This document shows positions 1,882-51,826 of a DNA stretch of 64,000 bases, in pieces (position 1 is the first letter of the stretch; the number at the start of each line of letters is the position of its first letter). The notes under the pieces were generated by a model. It worked only from the letters and a program-made list of their open reading frames with translations. It did no database searches and had not been told where the DNA came from. The position numbers and the translations under genes were made by a program. Origin of the DNA: an uncultured bacterium (GTDB lineage: Bacteria > Chlamydiota > Chlamydiia > Chlamydiales > SM23-39); contig CAZVHA010000005.1 in NCBI GenBank assembly GCA_964626905.1, positions 51,345 through 115,344 on the forward strand, written 5' to 3'.

Positions 1882-3476
1882 TGATGATTGCCAAAACTTT
1901 GAGTCGGTATCTCTTCTACCTCTCGCTCCTCCTCCTCGCCCCCATCGCTCTATCGGCCTACTTCCAATTTTTTTCCCAATCTCACCCACAGCCCCACAGT
2001 TTTTTCCCATTTTTATGGACCCTACTGATCGCACTGGGCTGCTCCTCCGTTCTCTATTTTATCGGAAAAAAAGGAAAAGATCCCCTGTACCGCAAAGAGA
2101 GCATTTTACTCCTCATCCTCATCTGGATTTTAACTACCCTGATCAGCGCCCTCCCTTTTGTCTTTAGCAAAACACTCAAACCCATCGACGCTTTTTTTGA
2201 GGCGATGTCGGGTCTTACGACGACGGGCGCCACAGTCATCGCCCCAAAGGCTTTTGATTCCAGAACAGGCGATGAAATTCCGATCCATCTGACCAATGTC
2301 CACGTCCCCGAAAAAACCTATTCCTACTTTGGGACTATCGATCCGATCCGAGATGTTGCAACGGGCATGATCACCCACTCTGGAGTGGAGGCTGTGGGTA
2401 AAGCGCTCCTTTTTTGGAGAAGCCTTTTACAGTGGATCGGCGGCATTGGCATCGTCGTCGTCTTTTTGGCGGTCCTTCCCGTTTTGGGCGTGGGGGGGAA
2501 ATTTCTCTTTCAAATGGAGACAACAGGTCCCATTAAAGACGAAATCCAACCCCGCGTCCGGATGGCAGCTTCGCGAGGCTGGAAACTCTACGCCTCTTTG
2601 ACCGTTTTAGAGATGATTCTTCTCGTCTCAACCAACCGAGATATGCCCCTTTTTGATGCGATCTGCACCTCTTTTTCCACCATTTCAACTGGGGGATTTT
2701 CAGTTCGGAATGAAAGTATCGGAAGTTATCACAGCCTTGCGACAGAGACGATCGTCATTATTTTTATGATCTTGGGAAGCATTAACTTTTCCCTCTATTT
2801 TCATATTCTTCGGATGAAGTTTTCCAAAATTTATGTCCCCGATTTTTTTCTCTTCTTAGGAGTGATTGCGATCGGCTCTATCGCCATCTCCTCTTTTCTC
2901 ATCCCTGAATTTGGAGTGGCGAACGGGTTTCGCCAAGGGATCTTTCAGGCAGTTTCAGTGCAGACCACAACAGGCTTTTTTTCCACAAATTACGACCTTT
3001 GGCCCTTTGCCCCGCAGATGCTCATGCTCATTTTGATGTTTGTCGGAGGCATGTCGGGCTCCACTGCAGGTGGAATTAAAACCTCAAGGTTCTACATCGC
3101 CTATAAAATTCTCATCCACCGCCTCGAATCGATTTTTCGCCCCGACAGCATCCGCAAACTCTACGTCGGACCGAGTGAAGTGGACGATAAAAATGCCCTC
3201 ACCGTCCTCACCTTCTTTTGCATTGTCGCTTTTTCTACAACTTTAGGGACAATCCTCCTCGTCTTTGACGGGATCGATCCAGAAACTGCCCTCGGCCTCA
3301 TCTCCTCATTCTTGAACAACTCCGGCATCGCCTTTAGAGCCGCTGGCCCCACCGAAACCATGGCCTTCTTATCCCCATTTTCCAAGCTCATGGCCTCCTT
3401 CTGGATGCTCTTGGGCCGCCTCGAATTTTTCGCCGTTTTGCTCCTCTTTTTACCCTCATTTTGGAAAAATCGGTAG
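1881..3476 (+). CDS. trkH: Potassium uptake transporter TrkH
   Basis: Polytopic membrane protein with four pore-loop-like motifs (TTTGATV, STGGFSV, TTTGFFS, STAGGIKT). The ATG at 1881 overlaps the trkA TGA (TGATG). The track start at 1878 is a TTG. Confidence 0.9.
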   Translation: MMIAKTLSRYLFYLSLLLLAPIALSAYFQFFSQSHPQPHSFFPFLWTLLIALGCSSVLYFIGKKGKDPLYRKESILLLILIWILTTLISALPFVFSKTLKPIDAFFEAMSGLTTTGATVIAPKAFDSRTGDEIPIHLTNVHVPEKTYSYFGTIDPIRDVATGMITHSGVEAVGKALLFWRSLLQWIGGIGIVVVFLAVLPVLGVGGKFLFQMETTGPIKDEIQPRVRMAASRGWKLYASLTVLEMILLVSTNRDMPLFDAICTSFSTISTGGFSVRNESIGSYHSLATETIVIIFMILGSINFSLYFHILRMKFSKIYVPDFFLFLGVIAIGSIAISSFLIPEFGVANGFRQGIFQAVSVQTTTGFFSTNYDLWPFAPQMLMLILMFVGGMSGSTAGGIKTSRFYIAYKILIHRLESIFRPDSIRKLYVGPSEVDDKNALTVLTFFCIVAFSTTLGTILLVFDGIDPETALGLISSFLNNSGIAFRAAGPTETMAFLSPFSKLMASFWMLLGRLEFFAVLLLFLPSFWKNR

Positions 3477-3504
3477 ATTTGGTATAATAGAAGTGAGGTG
3501 AATT

Positions 3505-3885
3505 ATGGAAATAACAAATACATCAAATTATCGGTATAACAATAGTAATTATAATTGGTCCGACTTCCTTCAATTATACAACCAATTCGGTGCTGATCGA
3601 AATCTTCTTCAACACGATCTCAGCCAAACTCCCCCCAATTGGTCGAAAATTCAACAGGATTTGAGCAAGATGGAACAAGATTTTAACGCGATGGTACAGA
3701 TGGCTCCCTTCATGAAAGGGGCAAGCGCAAAGCTTCTCGCGGGAGTCCTTGGACCCATGGCCAATTTCATTGCTCAGATGAAAGACGAAGCCATAGACAA
3801 GAATACAGACGGAATGTCCAAAACCCTTGCTTTATTTAACTTCCAGATGGGCCCCATTCTTCAGGTGATTCTGCAGGGGCGGTAG
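3505..3885 (+). CDS. Hypothetical protein, 126 aa, with an Asn/Tyr-rich N-terminus
   Basis: ATG preceded by GTGAGGTG. The ORF occupies an otherwise empty gap. No motif recognised and no signal peptide. Confidence 0.5.
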   Translation: MEITNTSNYRYNNSNYNWSDFLQLYNQFGADRNLLQHDLSQTPPNWSKIQQDLSKMEQDFNAMVQMAPFMKGASAKLLAGVLGPMANFIAQMKDEAIDKNTDGMSKTLALFNFQMGPILQVILQGR

Positions 3886-3913
3886 AACCCACCCCAGGTG
3901 CTTTTCCGCAGTA

Positions 3914-5892
<1,979 letters not shown>

Positions 5893-5918
5893 TGTCTTCC
5901 TCCAACTTTTTTAAGGCG

Positions 5919-5947
5919 ATTATAAAGGGTCCTCTTGAATTAGTCAA
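5919..5947 (-). promoter_or_regulatory. Candidate sigma-70/66-type promoter of groES-groEL
   Basis: The minus strand reads TTGACT (5947-5942), a 17-nt spacer, then TATAAT (5924-5919). A GGAGGA RBS at 5903-5898 precedes the ATG at 5892. Confidence 0.5.
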
Positions 5948-6003
5948 CATTTAGCAATCACTCCCCCCTCGTTGCCAAACCTCATGGCGAGAGTTCAGAG
6001 GCA

Positions 6004-6078
6004 GCCCTCAAAACTGCTTTGCATGGACGCAACGTGGCTCAAAAGGGCGATTTTTCCAGGCAAATGAGTTTTGAGGGC
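6004..6078. repeat. Perfect 11-bp inverted repeat (GCCCTCAAAAC ... GTTTTGAGGGC) with a 53-nt spacer
   Basis: Read directly. The arms are at 6004-6014 and 6068-6078, in the divergent region between groES and the RND operon. Confidence 0.8.
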
Positions 6079-6124
6079 GGCCTCTTCATTGACGAATAAA
6101 GGGAAATTTGCAAAGTTGCGAAAT

Positions 6125-7234
6125 ATGAAGATGGTGGGATGGTTCTTTCTTGTTTTGGCTCTTTTTTCCTGTGCGAAGAGGGAAGAAAAGCGGGCGATTG
6201 TCAAAGTGGTTCCGTACACTGTGGAGCCGCGGACGATTCCGTTGACATTTGAGTTTGTCGGGGTATGCCAGAGTTCCCACTTAGTGGAGGTCCGCTCGCG
6301 GGTGGAGGGGTATTTAGACAAGGTGGCCTATACTGAGGGGGCGCCGGTGAAAGAGGGGGACCTCCTTTTTGAGATCGACGCGCGTCTTTTCGAGGCGAAG
6401 TTGGATGAGGAGAAGGCGAATTTAGAGAAAGAGAAGGCAATTTTATGGTCAGCGCAAAGGGCGGTCGATCGATATAAGCCGCTTTTTGAGCAACGAGCTG
6501 CGAGCCGCAAAGATTTGGACGATGCGACAGCGCAGCTGCTCGCCCAGCAGGCGCAGGTGAGTTTTTATGAGGCGCGGCTGCATGAAGCTGAGCTGAATTT
6601 AAGTTACACGTCGATCCATTCCCCTATTTCAGGTCTGACGACCAACTCGAGATATCAAGAGGGGACGCTGATCTCTCCTGGAGCGAACGATCTTCTGACG
6701 ACGGTTTCAGTGATTGATCCTATCTGGGTTGTTGTGAACGTATCTGACTATTATTTTTTAAAGAGTTCTGAGGAGATTGCGGCGGGGATATTAGAAGTTC
6801 CTAAGGATTTTCATTTTGATGTAAAGCTCATTCTTTCCAATGGGAACGAATACCCCTATTCGGGGGAGGTGAGTTTTATTTCTCCTGTGTTGAATTCGAG
6901 TACGGGGACATTGAGTGCAAGGGCCATCTTTAAAAATCCGGAGTATCTTTTAAAGCCTGGGCAATTTGTGAAGGCGATTGCGTCTGGGGCAAAGAGGCTT
7001 CATGCGATCACCGTTCCCAAGTCTGCCATTGTGCAGGGGGAAGGGGGGCGATTTGTCTATGTGATTAAGGAGGGGAACCGGGTTGAGAAGAGAGCCGTTG
7101 TAACCGACACGTGGTACGGCGATGATTGGATTATCACATCGGGGTTAAAGGCGGGTGACGTGGTGGTTCAGGAAGGGGTGAATAAAGTAAAAGAGGGAAT
7201 GGTTGTAGAAGTGATCGATTCCCCAAAGAAATGA
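6125..7234 (+). CDS. RND efflux pump periplasmic adaptor (membrane fusion protein, AcrA/MexA family) lipoprotein
   Basis: Signal/lipobox MKMVGWFFLVLALFSC at the internal ATG 6125. Coiled-coil hairpin region (LDEEKANLEKEK...AQQAQVSFYEARL) and SPISG lipoyl-like motif. It is followed by the RND permease. The track start at 6071 adds 18 non-signal residues. Confidence 0.85.
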   Translation: MKMVGWFFLVLALFSCAKREEKRAIVKVVPYTVEPRTIPLTFEFVGVCQSSHLVEVRSRVEGYLDKVAYTEGAPVKEGDLLFEIDARLFEAKLDEEKANLEKEKAILWSAQRAVDRYKPLFEQRAASRKDLDDATAQLLAQQAQVSFYEARLHEAELNLSYTSIHSPISGLTTNSRYQEGTLISPGANDLLTTVSVIDPIWVVVNVSDYYFLKSSEEIAAGILEVPKDFHFDVKLILSNGNEYPYSGEVSFISPVLNSSTGTLSARAIFKNPEYLLKPGQFVKAIASGAKRLHAITVPKSAIVQGEGGRFVYVIKEGNRVEKRAVVTDTWYGDDWIITSGLKAGDVVVQEGVNKVKEGMVVEVIDSPKK

Positions 7235-7241
7235 TCGAAAT

Positions 7242-10200
7242 ATGTCAAATTTTTTTTTAAAAAGGCCGATATTTGCGATGGTTCTGTCGATCATCATCGT
7301 ATTGATTGGCATTGCCTTTTTAAGGCGACTTCCCATAGAGCAATTTCCCTCTTTAAGTCCAGTGCAGATCAAAGTGATCACTCGATTGCCTGGGGCGTCG
7401 GCCCAGGCTCTATCGGATAGCGTGGCGGCGCCTTTAGAGGAGGCGATCAATGGGGTCGAGAATATGATCTACATGTATTCTCAGAGCGTAGCTCCGGGAA
7501 ATCTCAGTTTAGTGGTCTCATTTAAGATTGGAACCGATCCAAACACCGCTTTGATCAACACGCAGAACCGGGTGAATCTAGCTCTTTCCTCCCTTCCTCC
7601 TGAAGTGCAAAAGGAGGGGGTGGTGGTCATCAATCAAAACCCCAGCATTTTGCTTTTTGTGGCCATTGAGTCGGAAAACGATTCACACGATCCGATTTTT
7701 CTTGCCAACTATGCGAATACAAACATTGCCAATTATCTTGAACGGATCAATGGGGTTAGTTCAGCCAAAGTGCTCAATGCGAAGGACTATTCGATCCGCA
7801 TTTGGATTAAGCCTGATCGGCTAGCGCAATTTGGGATGACGGTGACCGATGTGATTCGAGCGGTTCAAGAGCAAAATGGGACCCATTCGATTGGGTTGAT
7901 TGGGGGAGAGCCGACAATGACGCCGAACCAATTGACGATTCCAGTGACTGCTCCTGGGCGGTTAAAAAATGTGGAGGAGTTCGAAAACATTATTTTGCGG
8001 GCTGAGCGGGATGGGGCGATGGTGCTGCTCAAGAATGTGAGCGATGTCACTTTGGGCTCTATCAGTTATAACCTTGTGGGAGATCTCAACGGCAAATCGG
8101 GTGCTTTCATCGGGATTTACCAAGACACAGCGGCCAACGCGATTGAGGTGTCGAGTTCGGTGCGATCGAAGCTCGAGGAGCTCTCGCAATTTTTCCCTGA
8201 GGGAATCGTCTATAAAATTCCCTATGACACTTCAAATTACATCAAGTTATCGATTTCACATCTTCAAAAAACGCTCATCGAGGCTGTTTTGCTGGTCGCG
8301 CTGGTTATTTTTATCTTTTTACACAGCATTAGGGCGGCGATTGTTCCGATTGCGGCGATGCTCGTATCGATCACTGGGGCATTCATTGGGATGTATCTTT
8401 TTGGGTTTTCCGTGAACACTCTCACTCTTTTTGGGCTTGTTTTAGCGGTGGGGATTGTCGTGGATGACGCGATCATCGTCGTTGAAAATATCGAGAGGAA
8501 GTTGGGGGAAAAAGAGCTGACTCCACAGGAGGCGGCCCAAGTTGCGATGAAAGAGGTGACGGGGGCCGTTGTTGCGACGGCATGTGTATTGGGGGCGGTG
8601 TTCATTCCGGTCTCGTTTTTAGGGGGGATTACGGGGCAATTTTTCAAGCAATTTGCAATTACGATTGCAACGTCTGTTTTTCTCTCTGGGTTTGTCGCTT
8701 TGACGCTGAGTCCTGTTCTTTCGATACTCTTGCTGAAAAAGGGGCGCAAAAAAGCTAGGTGGGCGATCTATTTTGATTCGATGTTTGGGGCTTTATGTGA
8801 ATTTTATCTCAAAGGGGCGAGCTTTTTGATTCGAAAGCCGCTCTACGGCATCGGATTCTTTATTGCGATGATCATTGCAACTGGGGTGATTGTGAAGTCA
8901 ACCCCGATTGGGCTTGTCCCTCATGAAGATCAGGGGCTCGTGTTGATTTCATCTTCATTGCCAGATGGGGCGAGTTTATCGCGGGTGGAGGCTGTTTCGA
9001 ATCAAATTGAGAAAATCGCCTCTCAAAATCAGGGGGTATCGGATGTGCTTGCTATGTCTGGATATAGTTTGATTGAATCGATTGAGCGTTTGCAGATGGG
9101 GGCCTATTACATCAACTTGAAGAATTGGGATGAAAGGAAGGAGAGCGCATTTCAGATCATTGACTCATTAAATGCCCAATTGAGTGAGATTCCCGAAGCG
9201 CTGATTACGGCGCTAAATCCGCCTGATATTCCTGGAATTGGGGTGGTTGGAGGATTTGATTTTTGGATTGTCAATGATGGGCCTGCCGATTATGAAGCGG
9301 TCAATCGAGTGGTTAATGAGATTGTCGCAAAGGCGAAGACGCATCCTGAATTTTCGAAGGTATTGACTTCGATCAATGCGAATAACATGGAATTATTTAT
9401 CAATCTCGATGCAGTAAAAGCGCGCTCATTTGGGGTGAACATCGATGAAATTTACCAAACACTGCAGGTGCTTCTCGGTTCATCTTATATCAATCAGTTC
9501 AACAAATTTGGCCATGTTTATCAGGTGGTAGCGCAAGCGGAACCTTCTGGGCGCGATTCGATTGAAGATATTGGGAATACGTATGTGAGATCGAGTCAAA
9601 ATGAGATGATTCCGCTGAAATCGCTCATCATTCCCACTTTTTCTAAGGGGCCGACGTTGGTGCAGCGGTTCAATGGATTTCCGGCGGCATTGGTCTCATT
9701 GATTCCGGCAATTCCCGACCCAGAGCGGATCGTATCGGTCATGGAGAAAATTGCGAAAGAAACTCTTCCTCCGGGGATGTCTTATTCTTGGGGGGGACTT
9801 GCATTTCAACACAAGGAGACGGGGGGGATGTCGGCGGCGGCATTTCTTTCGGCATTTGTGCTCATCTTTTTAGTTTTAGCTGCGCTTTATGAGAGATGGC
9901 TTCTTCCGATTGCGATTTTGATGGCGGTTCCCTTTGGTGTATTTGGGGCCTTTTTAAGTGTCCGGTTGTTTCACACGGGGGCGAACATCTATTTAGTCAT
10001 TGGGGTGATTGCGCTGATTGGGCTTGCGGCCAAAAATGCGATTTTGATCATTGAGTTTGCGAAAGAGGAGAGAAAAGCGGGCAAAGAGATCATCGATGCG
10101 GCGCTGACGGCGGCAAGGCTCCGCTTTAGGGCGATTATGATGACCTCGCTTACGATTATCGTCGGATCGCTCCCCTTAGTGGTTACAACAGGCGCTGGGG

Positions 10201-16668: not shown

Positions 16669-17199
16669 TCATAAACGCTCATGTTCGGGGATTTCATAAA
16701 GGGTGAGATAAAAATCCTGTTCGTCCCTCCCATTCAGACTCCCTTGGAAAATGGCCGTATTTCGAACATAGAGTTGGGCATGATTAAGGAGCCTTTGATC
16801 CGCTCCGTTTTCGACCAAATAACGATAAAATGGGTGGCTTTCCTTTGCGTGGTATCGATTGTAGAGCCATCTTGGGATCAAAGTGATACAACGAATTGGC
16901 AAAGTTGCAAAATCAATCACTGCCGAAACGATGACTGTCAAAATTTTGAGGCCAAATTCTTTTATCTTTAAGGCAGCAATGGCTCCAGGAAAGAAAAGAT
17001 CTTTGCAAAAGTTCCCAATAGTGTCCGTTCTAACAACAACGAACTGCCCCTCCCAGGAACATTTTCTGGCATTGTAACTGCAAAGATTGGCCACACGCGA
17101 ATATTCACCGACACTTTTACACTCTTTGGTAAAGAGCCAAGGCTGGCCAGCCCCTTCTGAAACACGAATAGCGTTAGTGACTCTTAATTCAGCACTCAT
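16669..17199 (-). CDS. Hypothetical membrane protein, 176 aa
   Basis: ATG start and a central hydrophobic segment ILTVIVSAVIDFATLPIRCITLIPRWLY. No enzyme motif recognised. Confidence 0.5.
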   Translation of the reverse strand: MSAELRVTNAIRVSEGAGQPWLFTKECKSVGEYSRVANLCSYNARKCSWEGQFVVVRTDTIGNFCKDLFFPGAIAALKIKEFGLKILTVIVSAVIDFATLPIRCITLIPRWLYNRYHAKESHPFYRYLVENGADQRLLNHAQLYVRNTAIFQGSLNGRDEQDFYLTLYEIPEHERL

Positions 17200-17285
17200 A
17201 CAGCCCCCGATTTTAATCGGTTCAAAGGGTCGCCGATTTTCCCACTAAATGTCAACTTTGCCAGGTTAGTGAAGCGACATACAGA

Positions 17286-17335
17286 ATTCGGTTGTAACCG
17301 AATGAACTGCACGCCATTATTCGGTTACAACCGAA
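17286..17335. repeat. Two copies of a dyad, ATTCGGTT-NN-AACCGAA(T), spaced about 33 nt apart
   Basis: 17286-17303 is a perfect 8+2+8 palindrome. 17320-17335 is a perfect 7+2+7 palindrome of the same sequence. Both lie in the 186-nt gap between two minus-strand genes. Confidence 0.85.
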
Positions 17336-17385
17336 CAAATTGGTATGGAACGGTTATTTGAGATTCAACGCATTATCATTACGCT

Positions 17386-17976
17386 CTAGTGCTCAGTCTC
17401 AGGCAATTTTTTTCTGATACATTTCACTTTTGATAAAATGTCCGTAATAATATACACATCAGGAGTTACATATTTCCTCTCTTCCTTCGGACAGACTCCA
17501 TCTTCTTCGGCTATAAAATACATAATCTCATTCTCATAGATCGCTATCATCTCCAAATCGTCTTTCCGTAAGTGCCTTTTTTCATCATAGTCAAAATGTA
17601 AACGAAAAGATAAATCCTCATAGGTAATAGGAAAATGATAAAAACAATTCCGAAACTCTTCTCTACTATTCAAAAGAGCGAGCAACCCATCAACAATTTT
17701 ATAAAAATACCGTCTTCCTTCATCACATCTTATATTCAAATCTACACTATACCCCAGATCAATTAAGTGGATTTTCCCATCATAAACTTTATCCCGGCCT
17801 GTGCAACGCACTCCATATGATCTCAGCTTAACGTTCTTTTCTTTTCTCAATTGTTCTGAATATTTCTTTATCAAAGGAATCACTTCATCTCTAGGATTGC
17901 TTGTTTTGCTCATTGCATAAACAGGACCCGACTGCAATGCGGATAAAATAGCAAAGAAATATAGGTACCAATTCAT
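17386..17976 (-). CDS. Hypothetical secreted protein, 196 aa, in a very AT-rich gene
   Basis: Signal peptide MNWYLYFFAILSALQSGPVYA. An ATGA overlap links it to the upstream gene. No motif recognised. Confidence 0.55.
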   Translation of the reverse strand: MNWYLYFFAILSALQSGPVYAMSKTSNPRDEVIPLIKKYSEQLRKEKNVKLRSYGVRCTGRDKVYDGKIHLIDLGYSVDLNIRCDEGRRYFYKIVDGLLALLNSREEFRNCFYHFPITYEDLSFRLHFDYDEKRHLRKDDLEMIAIYENEIMYFIAEEDGVCPKEERKYVTPDVYIITDILSKVKCIRKKLPETEH

Positions 17977-18578
17977 CGCATCCCCCCATATTTTTCGTAA
18001 TCAGGTGCATTAAATCTCTTTATCCCCTTCTGATATGTTTGATTTTCAAAATAATGCCCCTTAATAAATCCCGAATAGACCTCCTCATCTGAATCGAAAA
18101 GAATGTACTGGTTTTTCAAATGCGTCTTCGCAGAAATTTCCCCGCTCGATGTATTCGTAAACCCCTTCGCACTCTGCGCAAAATTGTGCGCATTGTAGCG
18201 AAATACCTGCCTCGGCTCCTCTTTTTCCCCGTAAAATCCCTTCCCAATTTGCGGATACTTTTGCTCGTTCGGGTCGAGAAAATAACAGAGCGTCGTCCCA
18301 TTGCGCTCATTCACAAAAATCTCATTCGTCAAACAAGAAAATGAGGCCCTTAAGTGCCCATCTCCCCTAAACGTCCCCAGCCGGCTAATAAATGCCCTTT
18401 GCAAACGAATCGGCTCTGCCCCCTGAACCACATAATCCTCATCAAACGAATACAAATCCCCCGTAATCATGCTCACCCCCTCCACAAGAGCCGAAGGATC
18501 ATTCTCCGTCACCGCAACCGCCAACTCATCCGAATGGATAGAAAAAATAAGAAATAAAAAAACGCAAAGATACTTCAC
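17973..18578 (-). CDS. Hypothetical secreted protein, 201 aa, with an Rhs/DUF6531-like N-terminal string
   Basis: GTG start after GGGGGA. Signal peptide MKYLCVFLFLIFSIHS. The segment VSMITGDLYSFDEDYVVQGAEPIRLQRAFIS resembles the V-x-x-x-[ST]-G-...-D-...-G-..-P-[IL]-x-[LF]-x-R-x-[YF]-x-S pattern at the start of Rhs/YD-repeat proteins. Confidence 0.5.
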   Translation of the reverse strand: MKYLCVFLFLIFSIHSDELAVAVTENDPSALVEGVSMITGDLYSFDEDYVVQGAEPIRLQRAFISRLGTFRGDGHLRASFSCLTNEIFVNERNGTTLCYFLDPNEQKYPQIGKGFYGEKEEPRQVFRYNAHNFAQSAKGFTNTSSGEISAKTHLKNQYILFDSDEEVYSGFIKGHYFENQTYQKGIKRFNAPDYEKYGGMR

Positions 18579-18689: not shown

Positions 18690-20282
18690 ATGACAACCGC
18701 TACCTCGAACGTCGTCCAGCTCTCTACGGACTACTGGATTACGCTGGATGAATTCTCCTCTCTCTTGGTGAATGCCGAGATCGATCTCGGTGAACAGGCA
18801 ATCGAGCGGATGAATGAGACGCGCCGTTTTATCGACTACCTTTTATCGGCCCAAATCCGCGTGTATGGCTTGACAACCGGTTTTGCCGACCTTAGAAACA
18901 CCGCGGTCGATGCGGAATACGCAGCCCTACTTTCAAAAAACATGATCCTCAGCCACGATGCCGGCATCGGCAAGCCGCTTGCGCAAAATATCACTTTGGG
19001 CGCCATGATTTTGAGGGCCCACTCTCTCTCAAAAGGGTATTCGGGGTTTTCAGTCGATTCGTTGGAGACCCTCATCCAAATGATCAATGCTAGAATTGTC
19101 CCGGAGATCCCCTGCACAGGCTCTCTCGGCGCAAGCGGCGATCTCGCCTTTTTGGCAAGGCTCGGCAGAGCCATGATGGGCGAAGAGGTCCCTGTACTGC
19201 ATCGAGGGATGAAAACGAGCGCAAAAGAGGCTTTTCGCCTCGCGAAAATTGAACCAATGACTCCAAAGGCCAAAGAGGGCCTCGCGTTGACCAATGGCAC
19301 CTCTTTCATGGCCTCCATGATGGCGATCGGCTACCAAAAAGAGATGCAATGCCTCGAAAATGCCATCTCGCTCCTCGGCCTTTTTCTCAATGCAACGGCT
19401 GCTGCTGAACCCGCTTTCTTTGACATGATGCAGAGCGTGAGACGCCAAAAAGGACAAGCCCGCATCGCAGAAGTTTTACGCCCCTTCTTGCGAGAAGAAA
19501 GATCCAGAGAAATCCAAAATGACTACTCCATCCGCTGCCTGCCCCAAATCTTAGGCCCTAAGGTTGAAATGATCTTAGAACAGAGGCAAAAGATCGAAAA
19601 CGAACTCAACGCCATCACCGATAACCCCCTCATCTTCCGAAATGACGAAATCTCCCCAGATGTCGATCGCTCCCATATCATCCCCTTCAATGGGACCGAT
19701 TGGGTCGTCGCTTCAGGCGGCAATTTCCACGGCGAAACGACCAGCACAATCGCCGATGCGATCGCAATCGCCAACGCCAAAATCGCCCTCACTTTGGAAA
19801 GACAGCTCACCTACATGCTCAACCCCGCCCGCAATGGGAAAAAATTCCCCATCTACCTCATTGCGAATCCAAAACTTGCAGGCTTCCAATCGGGCTTCAT
19901 GATCACCCAATACACCGCCAATGCCCTGACCCACAAGATTTGCCTCCTCGCCAACCCAGCCTCAACCACGAACCTCACCTCGGCAAATGAATCGGAAGAC
20001 GTCGTCAGCTATGGAGCCACAGCCGCACAAAAATTGCTCGAACAAATCGAACTCTTCGAACAGCTTTTGGCCATTCATCTCCTCACGACAGCGCAAGCTT
20101 ATTCCCTCATTCGAAAAACAAAAGAAAACAAAAACCCTTTCTGCGAAGAAATCTTTGCAAAAATCGAATCTAAAATCCCATTCCCCCAAATCGAAGACGA
20201 AAGTTTCGATCACAAATACAAAGTGGCCCTCTCCCTTTTGCAATCGGGCAGCTTGGTGTATCACATTCTTAAAATGTCTTGA
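18690..20282 (+). CDS. hutH: Histidine ammonia-lyase (MIO-dependent aromatic amino acid lyase family)
   Basis: 530 aa. The MIO-forming triad Ala-Ser-Gly sits in GSLGASGDLA (nt 19131-19139). The Ser-His selectivity pair in ILSHDAG favours histidine over Tyr or Phe. Confidence 0.82.
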   Translation: MTTATSNVVQLSTDYWITLDEFSSLLVNAEIDLGEQAIERMNETRRFIDYLLSAQIRVYGLTTGFADLRNTAVDAEYAALLSKNMILSHDAGIGKPLAQNITLGAMILRAHSLSKGYSGFSVDSLETLIQMINARIVPEIPCTGSLGASGDLAFLARLGRAMMGEEVPVLHRGMKTSAKEAFRLAKIEPMTPKAKEGLALTNGTSFMASMMAIGYQKEMQCLENAISLLGLFLNATAAAEPAFFDMMQSVRRQKGQARIAEVLRPFLREERSREIQNDYSIRCLPQILGPKVEMILEQRQKIENELNAITDNPLIFRNDEISPDVDRSHIIPFNGTDWVVASGGNFHGETTSTIADAIAIANAKIALTLERQLTYMLNPARNGKKFPIYLIANPKLAGFQSGFMITQYTANALTHKICLLANPASTTNLTSANESEDVVSYGATAAQKLLEQIELFEQLLAIHLLTTAQAYSLIRKTKENKNPFCEEIFAKIESKIPFPQIEDESFDHKYKVALSLLQSGSLVYHILKMS

Positions 20283-21415
20283 AATCCTAAGATAAAGAAC
20301 CCAAAGAATCCCAAAATGAGATGCGAAAAGGTGCACCCCACCAAGGATCTTTGCTTCGCATACATCCACCCCCAGATCAGACCCCAAAAATAGACTCCGA
20401 GGGTGAGAGAAAAAGATAAGTGAAGATGGATCATGCTAAAGGGAAGATTCGAAACGAGAATCGCAATCAGCGTATTGCGCTTTGACAAAAGGAGCTTTTC
20501 CAAAACGTTTTGCATAAACCCGCGGTAAATCATCTCCTGCACCGGAACAAAAATGAGATAGGCGACAACTAAGATCACAAACAACAGCGGAGTATACGGA
20601 ACATTTTCACCGAGCGCAGGAGAAATGGAAATCAGATGCAAGTCATGAAATTCAGTGACCCATCGAATCGCCGCCCATTTCATCAAAACGAGCAAAAGGA
20701 CCATCGGAATCGTCCAAAAAAAGGAGGAAATGAGCTGCTTCCCCCAATTACGACTCGTAAAGCCATAATCGCTCCAGGGATAGTCGGTCTTGCGGACAAG
20801 CATCATCATCGCAAGGACAAACACAATCAGGATCGGCACGCTGATCACTGTGCTCGACAGGACTTGGATCTGAAGTAAATCGAGAAAACGGATCGAATAA
20901 ATATAGAAAAAGATCAGTAGGAGAAGATAAATCAGGCAGTTCCCCAGATGACTTCTCGCTTTTTCCTGTTTCAATTGATTCTGAATCGCCAACACCGCAA
21001 CATCTGCCCCTCCTCTTGCCCGTTCCGTTAAAACTTGCAAAAATTGAAGCTGTATTTGAGCGCCCAGCTCTTTTGTCTCAGGATGTTTGGCAAGCTCTTC
21101 CAAAGAGATCCGAAGAAGCGTGCAAGAAGTTTTTGCTAGGGCCGTTGCAATTCTCCGATGCGACTTTGCCACAGCTGCCATCTCACCGACAACCTCTCCT
21201 TTGTGAATCAGGGCCAAGTGGATCTGATCTTTAACGATCTCTATCGTCCCATCGATCACTAGAAAAAATTCTTCCCCTTGCTCTCCCTCTCGAAAAAGAG
21301 AGCTCCCTTCTTTGAAATGGACCATTTTGGAAAATTGTAAAAGGGCGCTCAACTCGCGCTTCGAAAAGTTCTTGAAAAAGAAATTTTGACTCAAAACATC
21401 GAGATCTACCTCCAT
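20261..21415 (-). CDS. Fusion protein: cyclic-nucleotide-binding domain plus CPBP (CAAX/Abi) intramembrane protease domain
   Basis: The N-terminus is a CAP_ED-like domain (FKEGSSLFREGEQGEEFFLVIDGTIEIV...GEVVGEMAAV...RRIATALA). The C-terminus is polytopic with CPBP motifs (VQEMIYRGF, PFSMIHLH, FSHLILGFFGF). The ATG at 21415 shares one base with the upstream TGA. The track start at 21424 is a GTG. Confidence 0.7.
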   Translation of the reverse strand: MEVDLDVLSQNFFFKNFSKRELSALLQFSKMVHFKEGSSLFREGEQGEEFFLVIDGTIEIVKDQIHLALIHKGEVVGEMAAVAKSHRRIATALAKTSCTLLRISLEELAKHPETKELGAQIQLQFLQVLTERARGGADVAVLAIQNQLKQEKARSHLGNCLIYLLLLIFFYIYSIRFLDLLQIQVLSSTVISVPILIVFVLAMMMLVRKTDYPWSDYGFTSRNWGKQLISSFFWTIPMVLLLVLMKWAAIRWVTEFHDLHLISISPALGENVPYTPLLFVILVVAYLIFVPVQEMIYRGFMQNVLEKLLLSKRNTLIAILVSNLPFSMIHLHLSFSLTLGVYFWGLIWGWMYAKQRSLVGCTFSHLILGFFGFFILGFQDILRM

Positions 21416-22830
21416 CAATCCCACCCTTCAGCCGGCCCGCTTGGCAGATGATGGGTCGATTTTCTGTGGTAAAGGAAAGCGCTCACAAGAAACGCAATGA
21501 CCATCAATATCCCCAAAAGGAAATGGACCGAAGAAAAACTCATCATCTCAGCAATTCTCTCCCCCACATTCGGCAAATAGATGGCCTTTTCCCAACTTGT
21601 AAAAGCAAAAATCAGCGCAAGCCCTATCGTCCCGGCAAATACCCTCAACATACTCACAATCCCAAAAGCAATGCCCAACTGCTCCTCCGGAATATCACTC
21701 ATCGCAACTGTATAGGAAGGGGTAAAGATCAAAGGGAGCCCCATTCCAAAAAAGAAGAGGGGAATCAGGTATAAAATGAGCGTCGGCATTGGCGTGTTGC
21801 CCAACCAGAAAAAAGAGAGGATAATCAGACAATACCCAAGCGCAATCGGCAATTTGGGACTCACCTTGTCAGATAAAAATCCCCCCACATACGAGAAAAA
21901 AAAGACCGGCACGGATGAAAAAGCAGTAATTATACCCGTCTGAGTGGGGGTATATCCCAAAATAGTCTCCGTATAAATCGTTCTAAATACCGTAATCATC
22001 AAAATAAATTGCGAAATCGCAATGCTCACATTGATCGATGCAAAGATCGGACGCTTGAAAAGTGTTAAAGTTATAAACGGATTGCGGGAAGTTTTTTCCC
22101 TTCTGAGGAGTAAAATAGCTGCGATAAAAGCCACAATGCCAGCGGCTAAGACCCTCCTGCTCCCCCATCCCCAGCTCGTCCCTTGCATAAAGACAAGGGT
22201 TGAAAAAAATGAGAAAAGCGCAAAATAAATAAAGCCGAGAAAATCGATCTTCCCCTCCCTTTTAGGAGATTTTGGGAGAACCAAAATGGTCAAAAAGATC
22301 CCAAGTGCTGCAATTGGCAAATTGATCCAAAAAATCCACCGCCAAGAGAGCCACTCAGTTAAAATCCCCCCTATCAATGGCCCCAGGATAAGGGAAATCG
22401 ATCCAATGCTCGCGATAATGCCGACAGCTCTCCCCCTCGAGACGGAAGGAAAACTAGTAGATATGAGCGCCGTCTGAGAAGGGCCGAGCATTGCGCCGGC
22501 AAGCCCCTGAAGGGCCCTGGCCCCAATCAAAAATTCTCCGCTTTGACTCATCCCACAAAGAAGGGAAAATAGAGCAAAAAGAGACATGCCCCAAAGATAA
22601 TTTACCCGGTGTCCAATCCGATCCCCTATTTTCCCCGCGAGTAAAACAAATACAGTCCACGAGAGAAGATAGGCATTGACCGCCCACTGCAAAGAGGTGG
22701 CGCTGGATCCGAACTCCTTTTGAATGACTGGAAGCGCCACGGGCAAAATCGACTGGTCCATGAACATCATCGCCGAAGAAGGAATGATGGCAAAGATTCG
22801 GCGCAGGCGCTCTGCGGATGTCAAGCTCAT
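21415..22830 (-). CDS. MFS transporter, 14-TM DHA2/EmrB-like drug:H+ antiporter family
   Basis: About 471 aa, polytopic. MFS motif A-like GKIGDRIGHR and motif C-like GPLIGGILTE. The ATG at 22830 is preferred over the track GTG at 22839. Confidence 0.85.
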   Translation of the reverse strand: MSLTSAERLRRIFAIIPSSAMMFMDQSILPVALPVIQKEFGSSATSLQWAVNAYLLSWTVFVLLAGKIGDRIGHRVNYLWGMSLFALFSLLCGMSQSGEFLIGARALQGLAGAMLGPSQTALISTSFPSVSRGRAVGIIASIGSISLILGPLIGGILTEWLSWRWIFWINLPIAALGIFLTILVLPKSPKREGKIDFLGFIYFALFSFFSTLVFMQGTSWGWGSRRVLAAGIVAFIAAILLLRREKTSRNPFITLTLFKRPIFASINVSIAISQFILMITVFRTIYTETILGYTPTQTGIITAFSSVPVFFFSYVGGFLSDKVSPKLPIALGYCLIILSFFWLGNTPMPTLILYLIPLFFFGMGLPLIFTPSYTVAMSDIPEEQLGIAFGIVSMLRVFAGTIGLALIFAFTSWEKAIYLPNVGERIAEMMSFSSVHFLLGILMVIAFLVSAFLYHRKSTHHLPSGPAEGWD

Positions 22831-22857
22831 AATCCGCACTATATAATGCGGGTCATT

Positions 22858-51212: not shown

Positions 51213-51826
51213 CCCGTTCCCATCACTGATTCGAGCATAGGGATGATTTTATCGAGGGCTTTGCGCCTATGGGAAATCCGATTTTTCACCGATTCGCCGA
51301 GCTCGGCAAAGGTTTTGCTATAGCCGTGCTTGATGAAGAGGGGGTCATAGCCGAAGCCGCTGCCGCCCCGATCTTTTGTGAGAAGAAGCCCTTCGCAGGT
51401 GCCCTTAGTGCACTTTTTAAGTCCTTCAGGTGAGGCGAGGGCGATTGCGCACTCATAAAAAGCTTGTCTATCGTCGTCCATGAGGTGCTGCATCTCTTCG
51501 AGGAGTTTTTTCCGATTGTCGAGATCGCTTGCATGGCCCCCTGCATAGCGGGCGGAAAAAACACCAGGCGCCCCACCTAAGGCGGGGACAACGAGCCCCG
51601 AATCGTCAGCAAGGACCCAACGACCCAAGGCTTTTGCAGCTGCAACTGCCTTTAATGAGGCATTTTCCTCAAAAGTGCCCCCGGTCTCTTCAGGGGAAAC
51701 ATAATTTGGAAAATCGCAAAGACTCAAAAGGTCGATGCGTGGGTAGGGTTTTAGCATGTTCCGCAGTTCACGCACTTTGTGGACATTGGCACTCGCGATG
51801 ACGAGCTCGACTGGTGAAGATGACAT
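51209..51826 (-). CDS. rdgB: dITP/XTP pyrophosphatase (RdgB/HAM1 family)
   Basis: 205 aa with LVIASANVHKVRE, FEENA..KA, DDSGL.VPALGGAPGVFSARY, FGYDPLF and ISHRRKAL. Confidence 0.9.
   Translation of the reverse strand: MSSSPVELVIASANVHKVRELRNMLKPYPRIDLLSLCDFPNYVSPEETGGTFEENASLKAVAAAKALGRWVLADDSGLVVPALGGAPGVFSARYAGGHASDLDNRKKLLEEMQHLMDDDRQAFYECAIALASPEGLKKCTKGTCEGLLLTKDRGGSGFGYDPLFIKHGYSKTFAELGESVKNRISHRRKALDKIIPMLESVMGTG

Follow-up and report, generated by a model that had tools for sequence, protein, structure and literature searches.

The question raised by this locus is whether a chlamydial gene that joins a cyclic nucleotide-binding (CNB) domain to a CPBP/Rce1-like membrane domain encodes a ligand-gated intramembrane protease or a receptor with another kind of output. 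The known targets of bacterial cAMP and cGMP signalling are chiefly CRP-type regulators, alongside some channels and a small number of enzymes. CPBP proteins are common in bacteria, and most of them are without an assigned function or a known regulator. The gene lies at positions 20261–21415 of a 64,000-nt stretch of DNA (the window; positions 51,345 to 115,344 of contig CAZVHA010000005.1, assembly GCA_964626905.1) from an uncultured member of the Chlamydiales (SM23-39). A sequence-only reading of the window had described the product as a CNB domain fused to a CPBP protease, and had predicted cyclic nucleotide control of a proteolytic or immunity-type function. In this study, the product was found to belong to a widespread, uncharacterised family, referred to here as CNB-CPBP, which has a predicted sensor with an intact binding cassette and a highly conserved membrane pocket with Gln in place of the catalytic Glu of Rce1. 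These proteins may be membrane-embedded receptors for cyclic nucleoside monophosphates (cNMP) with a non-proteolytic output.

The fusion gene and its product

The open reading frame (ORF) of the fusion gene was uninterrupted, with an ATG at position 21415 giving a product of 384 aa; a GTG three codons upstream of this ATG is a possible alternative start. The identical 384-aa protein was encoded on 9 independent public contigs and the gene is therefore no assembly artefact. Both domains scored above the curated Pfam cutoffs, with 58.9 bits for cNMP_binding (PF00027; E = 5e-16, cutoff 27.5) and 52.2 bits for the Rce1-like family (PF02517; E = 7.5e-14, cutoff 22.4), indicating that the two-domain fusion described from the sequence is real. 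All peptides quoted in that description were present in the protein, namely FREGEQGEEFFLVIDGTIEIV, GEMAAV...RRIATALA, QEMIYRG (residues 293–299), FSMIHLH (326–332) and SHLILG (364–369).

Size, distribution and annotation of the family

A word-index homolog search returned only 14 two-domain relatives, a number that was an artefact of the sensitivity of the method. When 1.84 billion cluster representatives (50% identity) were searched exhaustively with a profile, 1,381 matches at E ≤ 1e-30 were obtained. Among the best 150 of these, approximately 140 were single-stretch full-length matches of 370–430 aa with E < 1e-77, and the rest were multi-CNB proteins. Relatives were approximately 30% identical across the family. 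The peptide pattern GLFWGW[LM]Y, present in about one third of the family, was scanned in one genome per species and was detected in 205 species genomes. These included Legionella, Coxiellaceae and other Gammaproteobacteria; Chlamydiota, Verrucomicrobiota and Lentisphaerae; Variovorax, Rubrivivax, Hydrogenophaga and other Burkholderiales; Cyclobacteriaceae and other Bacteroidota; Myxococcales and Gemmatimonadetes; and Paenibacillus, Novispirillum and Caenispirillum. Family members were also carried on plasmid records of Azospirillum lipoferum 4B and Legionella lytica.

Database entries name the relatives "cyclic nucleotide-binding domain-containing protein" or "CRP-like cAMP-binding protein". 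A role as a CRP-like regulator, which corresponds to the CRP/FNR label of relatives in IMG, was rejected, with no helix-turn-helix (HTH) found and the CRP NCBIfam model matching residues 18–148 only (39.8 bits vs 266). Membership in the myxosortases or another named NCBIfam CPBP family was likewise rejected, since all of these models scored below cutoff. No NCBIfam family reached its cutoff for the fusion protein, the best of the CPBP type being MrtX (34.9 bits vs 180).

In the literature, no paper joining a CNB domain to a CPBP, CAAX or Abi domain was found, nor was a ligand-gated CPBP protease found to be described, as the sequence-only reading had supposed. That reading had left room for the architecture to be common and already characterised; it is common, occurring in hundreds of 50%-identity clusters from many phyla, but no paper characterising it was found. 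CNB-CPBP is a widespread, real and uncharacterised family, in which two known modules form an undescribed combination with a family-specific, remodelled pocket. The family is neither categorically new nor rare in databases.

The N-terminal domain as a predicted cNMP sensor

Searching the family profile against the Protein Data Bank (PDB) matched the CNB domains of PKG, PKA-R, Epac, SthK and Bd1971, with E values down to 4e-52, and the columns of the phosphate-binding cassette, G-E-(M/L)-A-L ... R-(S/T)-A-(S/T), were in register with those of the PDB domains. The full-length AlphaFold2 (AF2) model had a mean pLDDT (predicted local distance difference test score) of 80.9 and displayed the eight-stranded beta-roll with flanking helices that defines the CNB fold. 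When this model was searched with Foldseek, CNB structures containing bound cAMP or cGMP were retrieved with a probability of 1.00 and target TM-scores up to 0.86. The full-length model matched CNB domains only, and the membrane domain needed a model of its own (residues 150–384).

The cassette of the fusion protein is intact (G77-E78-M-A80 ... R88-I-A90-T-A). In cNMP cassettes, the G-E pair serves the ribose 2′-OH and R-x-A the phosphate. Conservation, here and below counted in 152 family members, was 151 for G77, 141 for both E78 and R88, and 137 for A90. Residue 89 was Ser or Thr in 131 of the relatives and is Ile in the window protein; PKA has Ala at the matching position. The sequence-only reading had considered that the cassette might be missing on proper alignment, which was not borne out by the alignment to PKA, PKG and CRP or by the fold. 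Based on all of its sequence and fold features, the N-terminal domain is a member of the CNB superfamily, and its prediction as a cNMP sensor is well supported.

The membrane domain and its pocket

The motif register was set by alignment to a canonical CPBP of Haloarcula, annotated as "CPBP family intramembrane glutamic endopeptidase" (APAEELVYRG...LFGLMH...THAM), in place of MmRce1. In this alignment, Q293-E294 fell on the E-E pair, R298 on the Arg of motif 1, H330 on the His of FxxxH, and H365 on the His of motif 3. Motif 2 conformed to FxxxH, with H330 present in 152 of 152 members. At motif 1, the first Glu, which is the catalytic base, was replaced by Gln at position 293 in 150 members; at motif 3, Gly369 occupied the position of the oxyanion Asn in 148. 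The Haloarcula CPBP is also without Asn at motif 3 (Trp at +4), so that motif 3 is less strict than motif 1. E294, R298, H330 and H365 were invariant (152/152), and Q302 and N323 were conserved in 151 and 135 members, respectively. In MmRce1, the catalytic dyad consists of E140 (E156 in yeast) and H173, and the oxyanion hole of H227 and N231 (PMC12067869); in DidK, an active CPBP esterase, the first position of motif 1 is an essential Asp203 (PMC10811503).

Because Q293 replaces the catalytic base of Rce1 and Gly the oxyanion Asn family-wide, the name "protease" is not secured for these proteins. The sequence-only reading had seen the Gln of motif 1 correctly (QEMIYRG) but kept the protease label despite the loss of the catalytic base. 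Judged by these comparisons, the fusion protein is a divergent CPBP/Rce1-like member, having the profile, the fold and motif 2 but not the motif 1 Glu or the motif 3 Asn. Its pocket is under very strong selection but is, by its residues, not a canonical glutamic-protease pocket. Filing the protein as a glutamic-type intramembrane protease is unwarranted, and a conventional protease role is doubtful.

A stand-alone CPBP of 203 aa, WP_011316849.1 (Trichormus variabilis plasmid NZ_CP047244.1; L014:1-1788), was observed to carry the QE...R and SHxxxG variants. This protein is without a CNB domain, so the Gln variant is not confined to the fusion family. Its gene is situated 3 nt downstream of a gene for a CHAT (caspase-like) domain protein.

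The AF2 model of residues 150–384 had a pLDDT of 82.1 and a predicted TM-score (pTM) of 0.79, and seven transmembrane (TM) helices were predicted in the full-length model. The sole significant PDB fold match to the model of residues 150–384 was 6U0O chain A (SpdC), with E = 1e-3 and TM-scores of 0.65/0.62 over 246 columns. APH-1B was a weak match at rank 11 in Foldseek, and 4CAD (MmRce1) was absent from the Foldseek matches to this model. PDB sequence searches with the membrane domain alone or with a hand-made CPBP consensus gave no match. Chain A of 6U0O serves as the SpdC reference in a previous study (PMC10811503); the entry is the Staphylococcus aureus SagB-SpdC complex, in which SpdC is a non-catalytic scaffold for its partner enzyme (10.1101/2020.05.21.109470).

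The distribution of charges in the loops fits a topology with the N-terminus inside, with Lys or Arg in loops 209–223, 309–313 and 356–357 and none in 181–187, 253–275 and 329–334. In the full-length model, one continuous helix (residues 112–180) started where the CNB domain ends and extended into TM1, and the linker consensus across the family contained an R-L-R-x-T-N motif. The linker helix would be the element that transmits the signal from the sensor to the membrane domain.

Gene neighbourhoods of the family

ORFs were called in 90 family loci and clustered all-against-all, and neighbour counts were made on 88 loci. In a position-specific scoring matrix (PSSM) search, a major facilitator superfamily (MFS) gene was directly beside the family gene and on the same strand in 16 of the 88 loci, namely two from Chlamydiae, twelve from Comamonadaceae, and one each from an unassigned proteobacterium and an alphaproteobacterium. 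MFS ORFs elsewhere in the same loci were much rarer (9). The adjacent transporters differed in subfamily, being a 14-TM DHA2 type in the window, divergent 12-TM proteins in Comamonadaceae and Bcr/CflA in the alphaproteobacterium; non-orthologous MFS genes adjoined family members in 14 loci besides the window and a chlamydial relative, L010 (GCA_975249365.1), whose fusion protein is 57% identical. Overlapping stop and start codons were present in the window and in Variovorax (L080). The TGATG overlap with the upstream DHA2-type gene, reported in the sequence-only reading, was confirmed from the ORF list; this linkage holds in the window, but the DHA2 ortholog is kept only in L010, and other subfamilies take its place elsewhere. 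A purely lineage-specific MFS link was dropped as an explanation after the PSSM search had shown MFS genes beside members in other lineages. The association recurs independently, which is suggestive, and when relatedness is allowed for it comprises only three or four lineages.

Pfam scanning of the 78 same-strand neighbours located within 100 nt of a family gene gave MFS_1 (7), Guanylate_cyc (4), PD40/OmpA (4), Response_reg (3) and Metallo-beta-lactamase/Apyc1 (3). Class III cyclases were found within 6 kb of the family gene in approximately 11 of the 88 loci. A CHASE2-cyclase gene lay 13 nt upstream of the family gene in a metagenome-assembled genome (MAG) of Legionellales (L039), and receiver- or PAS-linked class III cyclases were directly upstream in Bacteroidota. 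The relative L010 possessed a second CNB-CPBP paralog (L010:14996-17134) that shared 28% identity and the QE/FxxxH/HxxxG motifs with the window protein, and the end of this paralog gene was overlapped by 1 nt by a gene for a CHASE2 plus class III cyclase protein; the window is without an equivalent pair. In Legionella maioricensis (L019:7332-8099) and an uncultured Legionella (L020:7318-8082), the gene directly downstream matched the Apyc1 family (57 and 64 bits, respectively, vs cutoff 50), and a gene for another protein of the metallo-beta-lactamase (MBL) fold was downstream of the family gene in a chlamydial MAG. Apyc1 (Anti-Pycsar) is an MBL-fold family of cyclic nucleotide phosphodiesterases, and the Legionella copies are chromosomal, not phage-borne.

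From their domain content, the neighbouring cyclases are ordinary signal-transduction cyclases and not of the Pycsar type. The cyclic nucleotide control predicted by the sequence-only reading is plausible, since cyclases and Apyc1-like MBL proteins adjoin relatives in several phyla, but the output it proposed fared less well: a protease is an unsafe assignment, and no bacteriocin or immunity context was seen among the 78 putative operon partners.

Several lineage-specific arrangements were also observed. In MAGs of Cyclobacteriaceae/Ohtaekwangia (L061, L070, L071, L075, L081, L083 and L084; approximately positions 3000–8800), a receiver/PAS cyclase, in some cases PD40/OmpA, and CNB-CPBP were followed by a conserved protein of approximately 540 aa (e.g. 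L070:7179-8795) that had no Pfam match. Two tandem CNB-CPBP paralogs were inserted between sucA-sucB (E1 and E2 of 2-oxoglutarate dehydrogenase) and lpdA, in an apparent single operon, in L011 (6635-9173; JGI 3300009703), L012 and L013; tandem paralogs were also present in L001 and L040. In Verrucomicrobiae MAGs L031, L032, L045 (approximately 7200–7570) and L047 (3895-4260), a conserved 121-aa ORF was located 7–10 nt after the CNB-CPBP gene. The ORF before the CNB-CPBP gene was approximately 1,900 aa long in two of these four genomes, 685 aa in L031 and 883 aa in L047, where it was possibly cut by the contig end. The 121-aa ORF group could be a lineage-specific client or substrate.

Proposed mechanism and alternative explanations

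The explanation we prefer, with a probability of roughly 0.4, is that the fusion protein is a membrane-embedded cNMP receptor with a non-proteolytic output, in which cNMP would control how the protein binds or regulates a membrane client. According to this model, the cytoplasmic N-terminal CNB domain would bind a cNMP supplied by class III cyclases, and ligand binding would move the C-helix and linker, passing the change to TM1 of the seven-helix CPBP domain. The helix shift would then reshape the pocket containing Q293, E294, R298, Q302, H330 and H365, or change how accessible it is. The protein would act as a pseudoprotease or scaffold, in the manner of SpdC, LnsB or iRhoms, and in the chlamydial genome the translationally coupled MFS transporter would be the obvious candidate client. 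In this scheme we infer the identity of the ligand, the coupling of the helix to TM1, the non-catalytic output and the client.

Rce1-type proteolysis is most likely not the output, given the family-wide replacement of the catalytic Glu by Gln and of the oxyanion Asn by Gly. A non-proteolytic role is favoured because the closest structure, SpdC, is a scaffold, because MFS genes with translational coupling are repeatedly found next to members of the family, and because most of the studied bacterial CPBPs act by protein-protein contacts for which the motifs are not needed, as most of those studied in S. aureus do (PMC13559823). On this basis, a non-proteolytic output is slightly favoured over a catalytic one.

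Several observations weigh against the receptor model. The invariance of E294, R298, H330 and H365 looks more like that of an enzyme active site than that of a scaffold, and two family members have reverted to EE with Gly369 kept, which suggests that the pocket may still suit hydrolysis. No MFS neighbour was present in 72 of the 88 loci, 12 of the loci with such a neighbour are related ones from Comamonadaceae, which inflates the enrichment, and no universally conserved neighbour was detected among the 90 family loci. A tblastn search of the 64-kb window detected neither a cyclase nor a second CNB-CPBP paralog. Finally, the stretch at residues 112–156 had pLDDT values of 61–85, and the linker region was modelled with only moderate confidence (pLDDT 61–74).

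The proteins may alternatively be true cNMP-gated intramembrane hydrolases or proteases of altered chemistry, in which cNMP would open a lateral gate for a membrane-anchored substrate; this is a tentative possibility to be taken seriously. For example, H330 could be the base, with Q293 either placing the water molecule or stabilising the oxyanion, by a speculative analogy with the eqolisin peptidases, which use a Gln/Glu dyad. Full conservation of polar intramembrane residues at approximately 30% overall identity is typical of active sites and contrasts with the degenerate motifs found in SpdC and LnsB, the CPBP Pfam profile and fold are both present, and having no conserved partner gene is as expected for an enzyme whose substrates are encoded elsewhere. 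CPBP chemistry is also flexible, DidK being an esterase with Asp at position 1 (PMC10811503). However, all CPBPs shown to be active have an essential carboxylate at position 1 (E140/E156 of Rce1, D203 of DidK) where the fusion family has an amide, and the oxyanion Asn is Gly.

Two defence-related explanations were considered as well. A Pycsar-like anti-phage effector, in which cNMP made upon infection would cause a CNB-membrane protein to damage the membrane as PycTM proteins do, would account for the match of the CNB domain to PADLOC PycTIR/effector models (49–52 bits), for the class III cyclases near approximately 11 of the 88 loci, which gave weak PycC matches, and for the Apyc1-like MBL neighbours in some loci. 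But the PADLOC matches were confined to the generic CNB region and no PycTM model was matched, the adjacent cyclases carry receiver, PAS or CHASE2 sensors typical of housekeeping signalling, and the window is without a cyclase. The setting is furthermore one of core genes (kdsB, putA), with synteny kept between chlamydiae whose fusion proteins are 57% identical and with a copy inside the sucA-sucB-lpdA operon in L011, and the family sequence is strongly conserved, not showing the turnover expected of defence genes. With the wrong context and a match limited to the CNB domain, this candidate was discarded as very improbable. A self-immunity protein of the Abi/CPBP type against a bacteriocin or toxin, working with the MFS exporter, is in our view extremely improbable. 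Annotation as an immunity protein is frequent among bacterial CPBP/Abi proteins (PMC10811503) and an efflux-type MFS gene is adjacent, but bacteriocin, peptide-precursor or biosynthetic genes were found neither among the 78 putative operon partners nor around the window gene, the family is present in obligate intracellular chlamydiae, and it is not obvious what a cNMP sensor would contribute to an immunity that is constitutive.

Taken as a class, the CNB-CPBP proteins have, by our estimate, a little better than even odds of being a widespread, previously unrecognised output of cNMP signalling and the first ligand-gated CPBPs, whose invariant Gln-Glu/His/His pocket would work either by a non-canonical, cNMP-triggered intramembrane cleavage or as a cNMP-controlled intramembrane pseudoprotease that captures or releases membrane clients such as MFS transporters.

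Features of the locus

The positions of the features are listed in Table 1. The fusion gene is the last of a same-strand run consisting of kdsB-like, histidine phosphatase, MFS and CNB-CPBP genes, and the gene order from kdsB to the fusion gene is kept in L010. PutA encoded in the window was 73–75% identical to PutA of uncultured Chlamydiae MAGs, which places the source among environmental Chlamydiota. The MFS protein of the window scored 228.9 bits with TIGR00711 (DHA2/EmrB subfamily) vs a cutoff of 230.2. Scanning for promoters and terminators around the fusion operon gave results indistinguishable from those of shuffled sequence.

The 22-nt overlap between the 3′ end of the fusion gene and the convergent lyase gene, described in the sequence-only reading, was verified. 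The label "hutH" given there was right as to the aromatic ammonia-lyase family but missed the HutH equivalog cutoff (369 vs 539 bits). The gene is better named as a member of the HAL/aromatic ammonia-lyase family, with hutH plausible but not established. The lyase carries the Ala-Ser-Gly MIO (methylideneimidazolone) motif GSLGASGDLAFLA, and its substrate may be His, Tyr or Phe. The stretch that separates putA from the lyase gene (16669-18578, minus strand) contained three ORFs in a row, with lengths of 176, 196 and 201 aa, for which the precomputed Pfam field in public contigs is "-"; the equivalent stretch in L010 is without the lyase gene and contains two small ORFs only, with no Pfam match.

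Table 1. Location of the fusion gene, its domains and motifs, and the adjoining genes in the window
Feature	Residues	Position	Strand	Basis
cNMP-binding/CPBP fusion coding sequence, complete	384 aa + stop	20261..21415	-	ORF list and translation; both Pfam domains
CNB (CAP_ED) beta-roll domain (Pfam envelope)	32-109	21089..21322	-	PF00027
Phosphate-binding cassette GEMAAVAKSHRRIATA	77-92	21140..21187	-	Aligned to PKG/PKA cassette
Long linker helix from CNB domain to TM1	112-156	20948..21082	-	AF2 model
Seven-helix CPBP/Rce1-like membrane domain	157-384	20264..20947	-	AF2 model and fold match
Pfam Rce1-like core (PF02517)	278-368	20312..20584	-	Pfam
Motif 1 variant Q293-E294-M-I-Y-R298 (canonical EExxxR)	293-298	20522..20539	-	Alignment
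Motif 2 F326-S-M-I-H330-L-H332 (FxxxH)	326-332	20420..20440	-	F326 in 148/152
Motif 3 variant S364-H365-L-I-L-G369 (canonical HxxxN/D)	364-369	20309..20326	-	H365 in 152/152
DHA2-type MFS transporter, upstream, translationally coupled, possible partner		21415..22839	-	MFS_1, 188.5 bits
Convergent aromatic-amino-acid ammonia-lyase gene		18690..20282	+	PF00221 (Lyase_aromatic), 414.9 bits

Comparison with known systems and significance

The fusion family shares with Rce1 (MmRce1, 4CAD) and DidK the PF02517 profile, the order and spacing of the motifs on consecutive TM helices (xE...R, FxxxH, Hxxx-), the second Glu, the Arg and both His. It differs from them in the first carboxylate (E140/D203), which is Gln, in the oxyanion Asn, which is Gly, and in the added N-terminal cytoplasmic ligand-binding domain. 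SpdC (LyrA) of S. aureus (6U0O_A), which combines a CPBP fold with non-catalytic scaffolding, is the best structural match to the membrane domain; identity is only 15%, however, and SpdC is without a CNB domain and has dispensable motifs, in contrast to the invariant pocket of CNB-CPBP. The SpdC partner SagB has no counterpart at the fusion protein.

With CRP/FNR, the SthK and MloK1 channels, Bd1971 (CNB-EAL), Mt-Pat (CNB-acetyltransferase) and PycTIR, the fusion protein shares the CNB beta-roll and cassette followed by a C-helix leading to an output module. It differs from all of these in that the output is a CPBP membrane domain, and no such output was found described; a Pfam scan of the fusion protein detected no HTH, channel pore, EAL, GNAT or TIR domain. 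The iRhoms are rhomboid pseudoproteases that consistently have a substitution at one catalytic residue but conserve the remainder, and they act by client binding. The likeness to them would be a conceptual analogy only, the rhomboid fold being unrelated to CPBP and the iRhoms being eukaryotic.

The functional reading of the family so far comes from its domain fusion. If this reading holds, CNB-CPBP would hand both the cyclic nucleotide and the CPBP fields a tractable handle, with a predictable ligand and a pocket marked by invariant residues. Members occur in cultured and partly genetically tractable hosts, including Legionella, Variovorax, Azospirillum, Paenibacillus and Novispirillum. The natural Glu-to-Gln swap bears on which bacterial CPBPs are enzymes and which are scaffolds. 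In chlamydiae and Legionellales, the presence of the family suggests that intracellular bacteria place a membrane process under the control of a second messenger.

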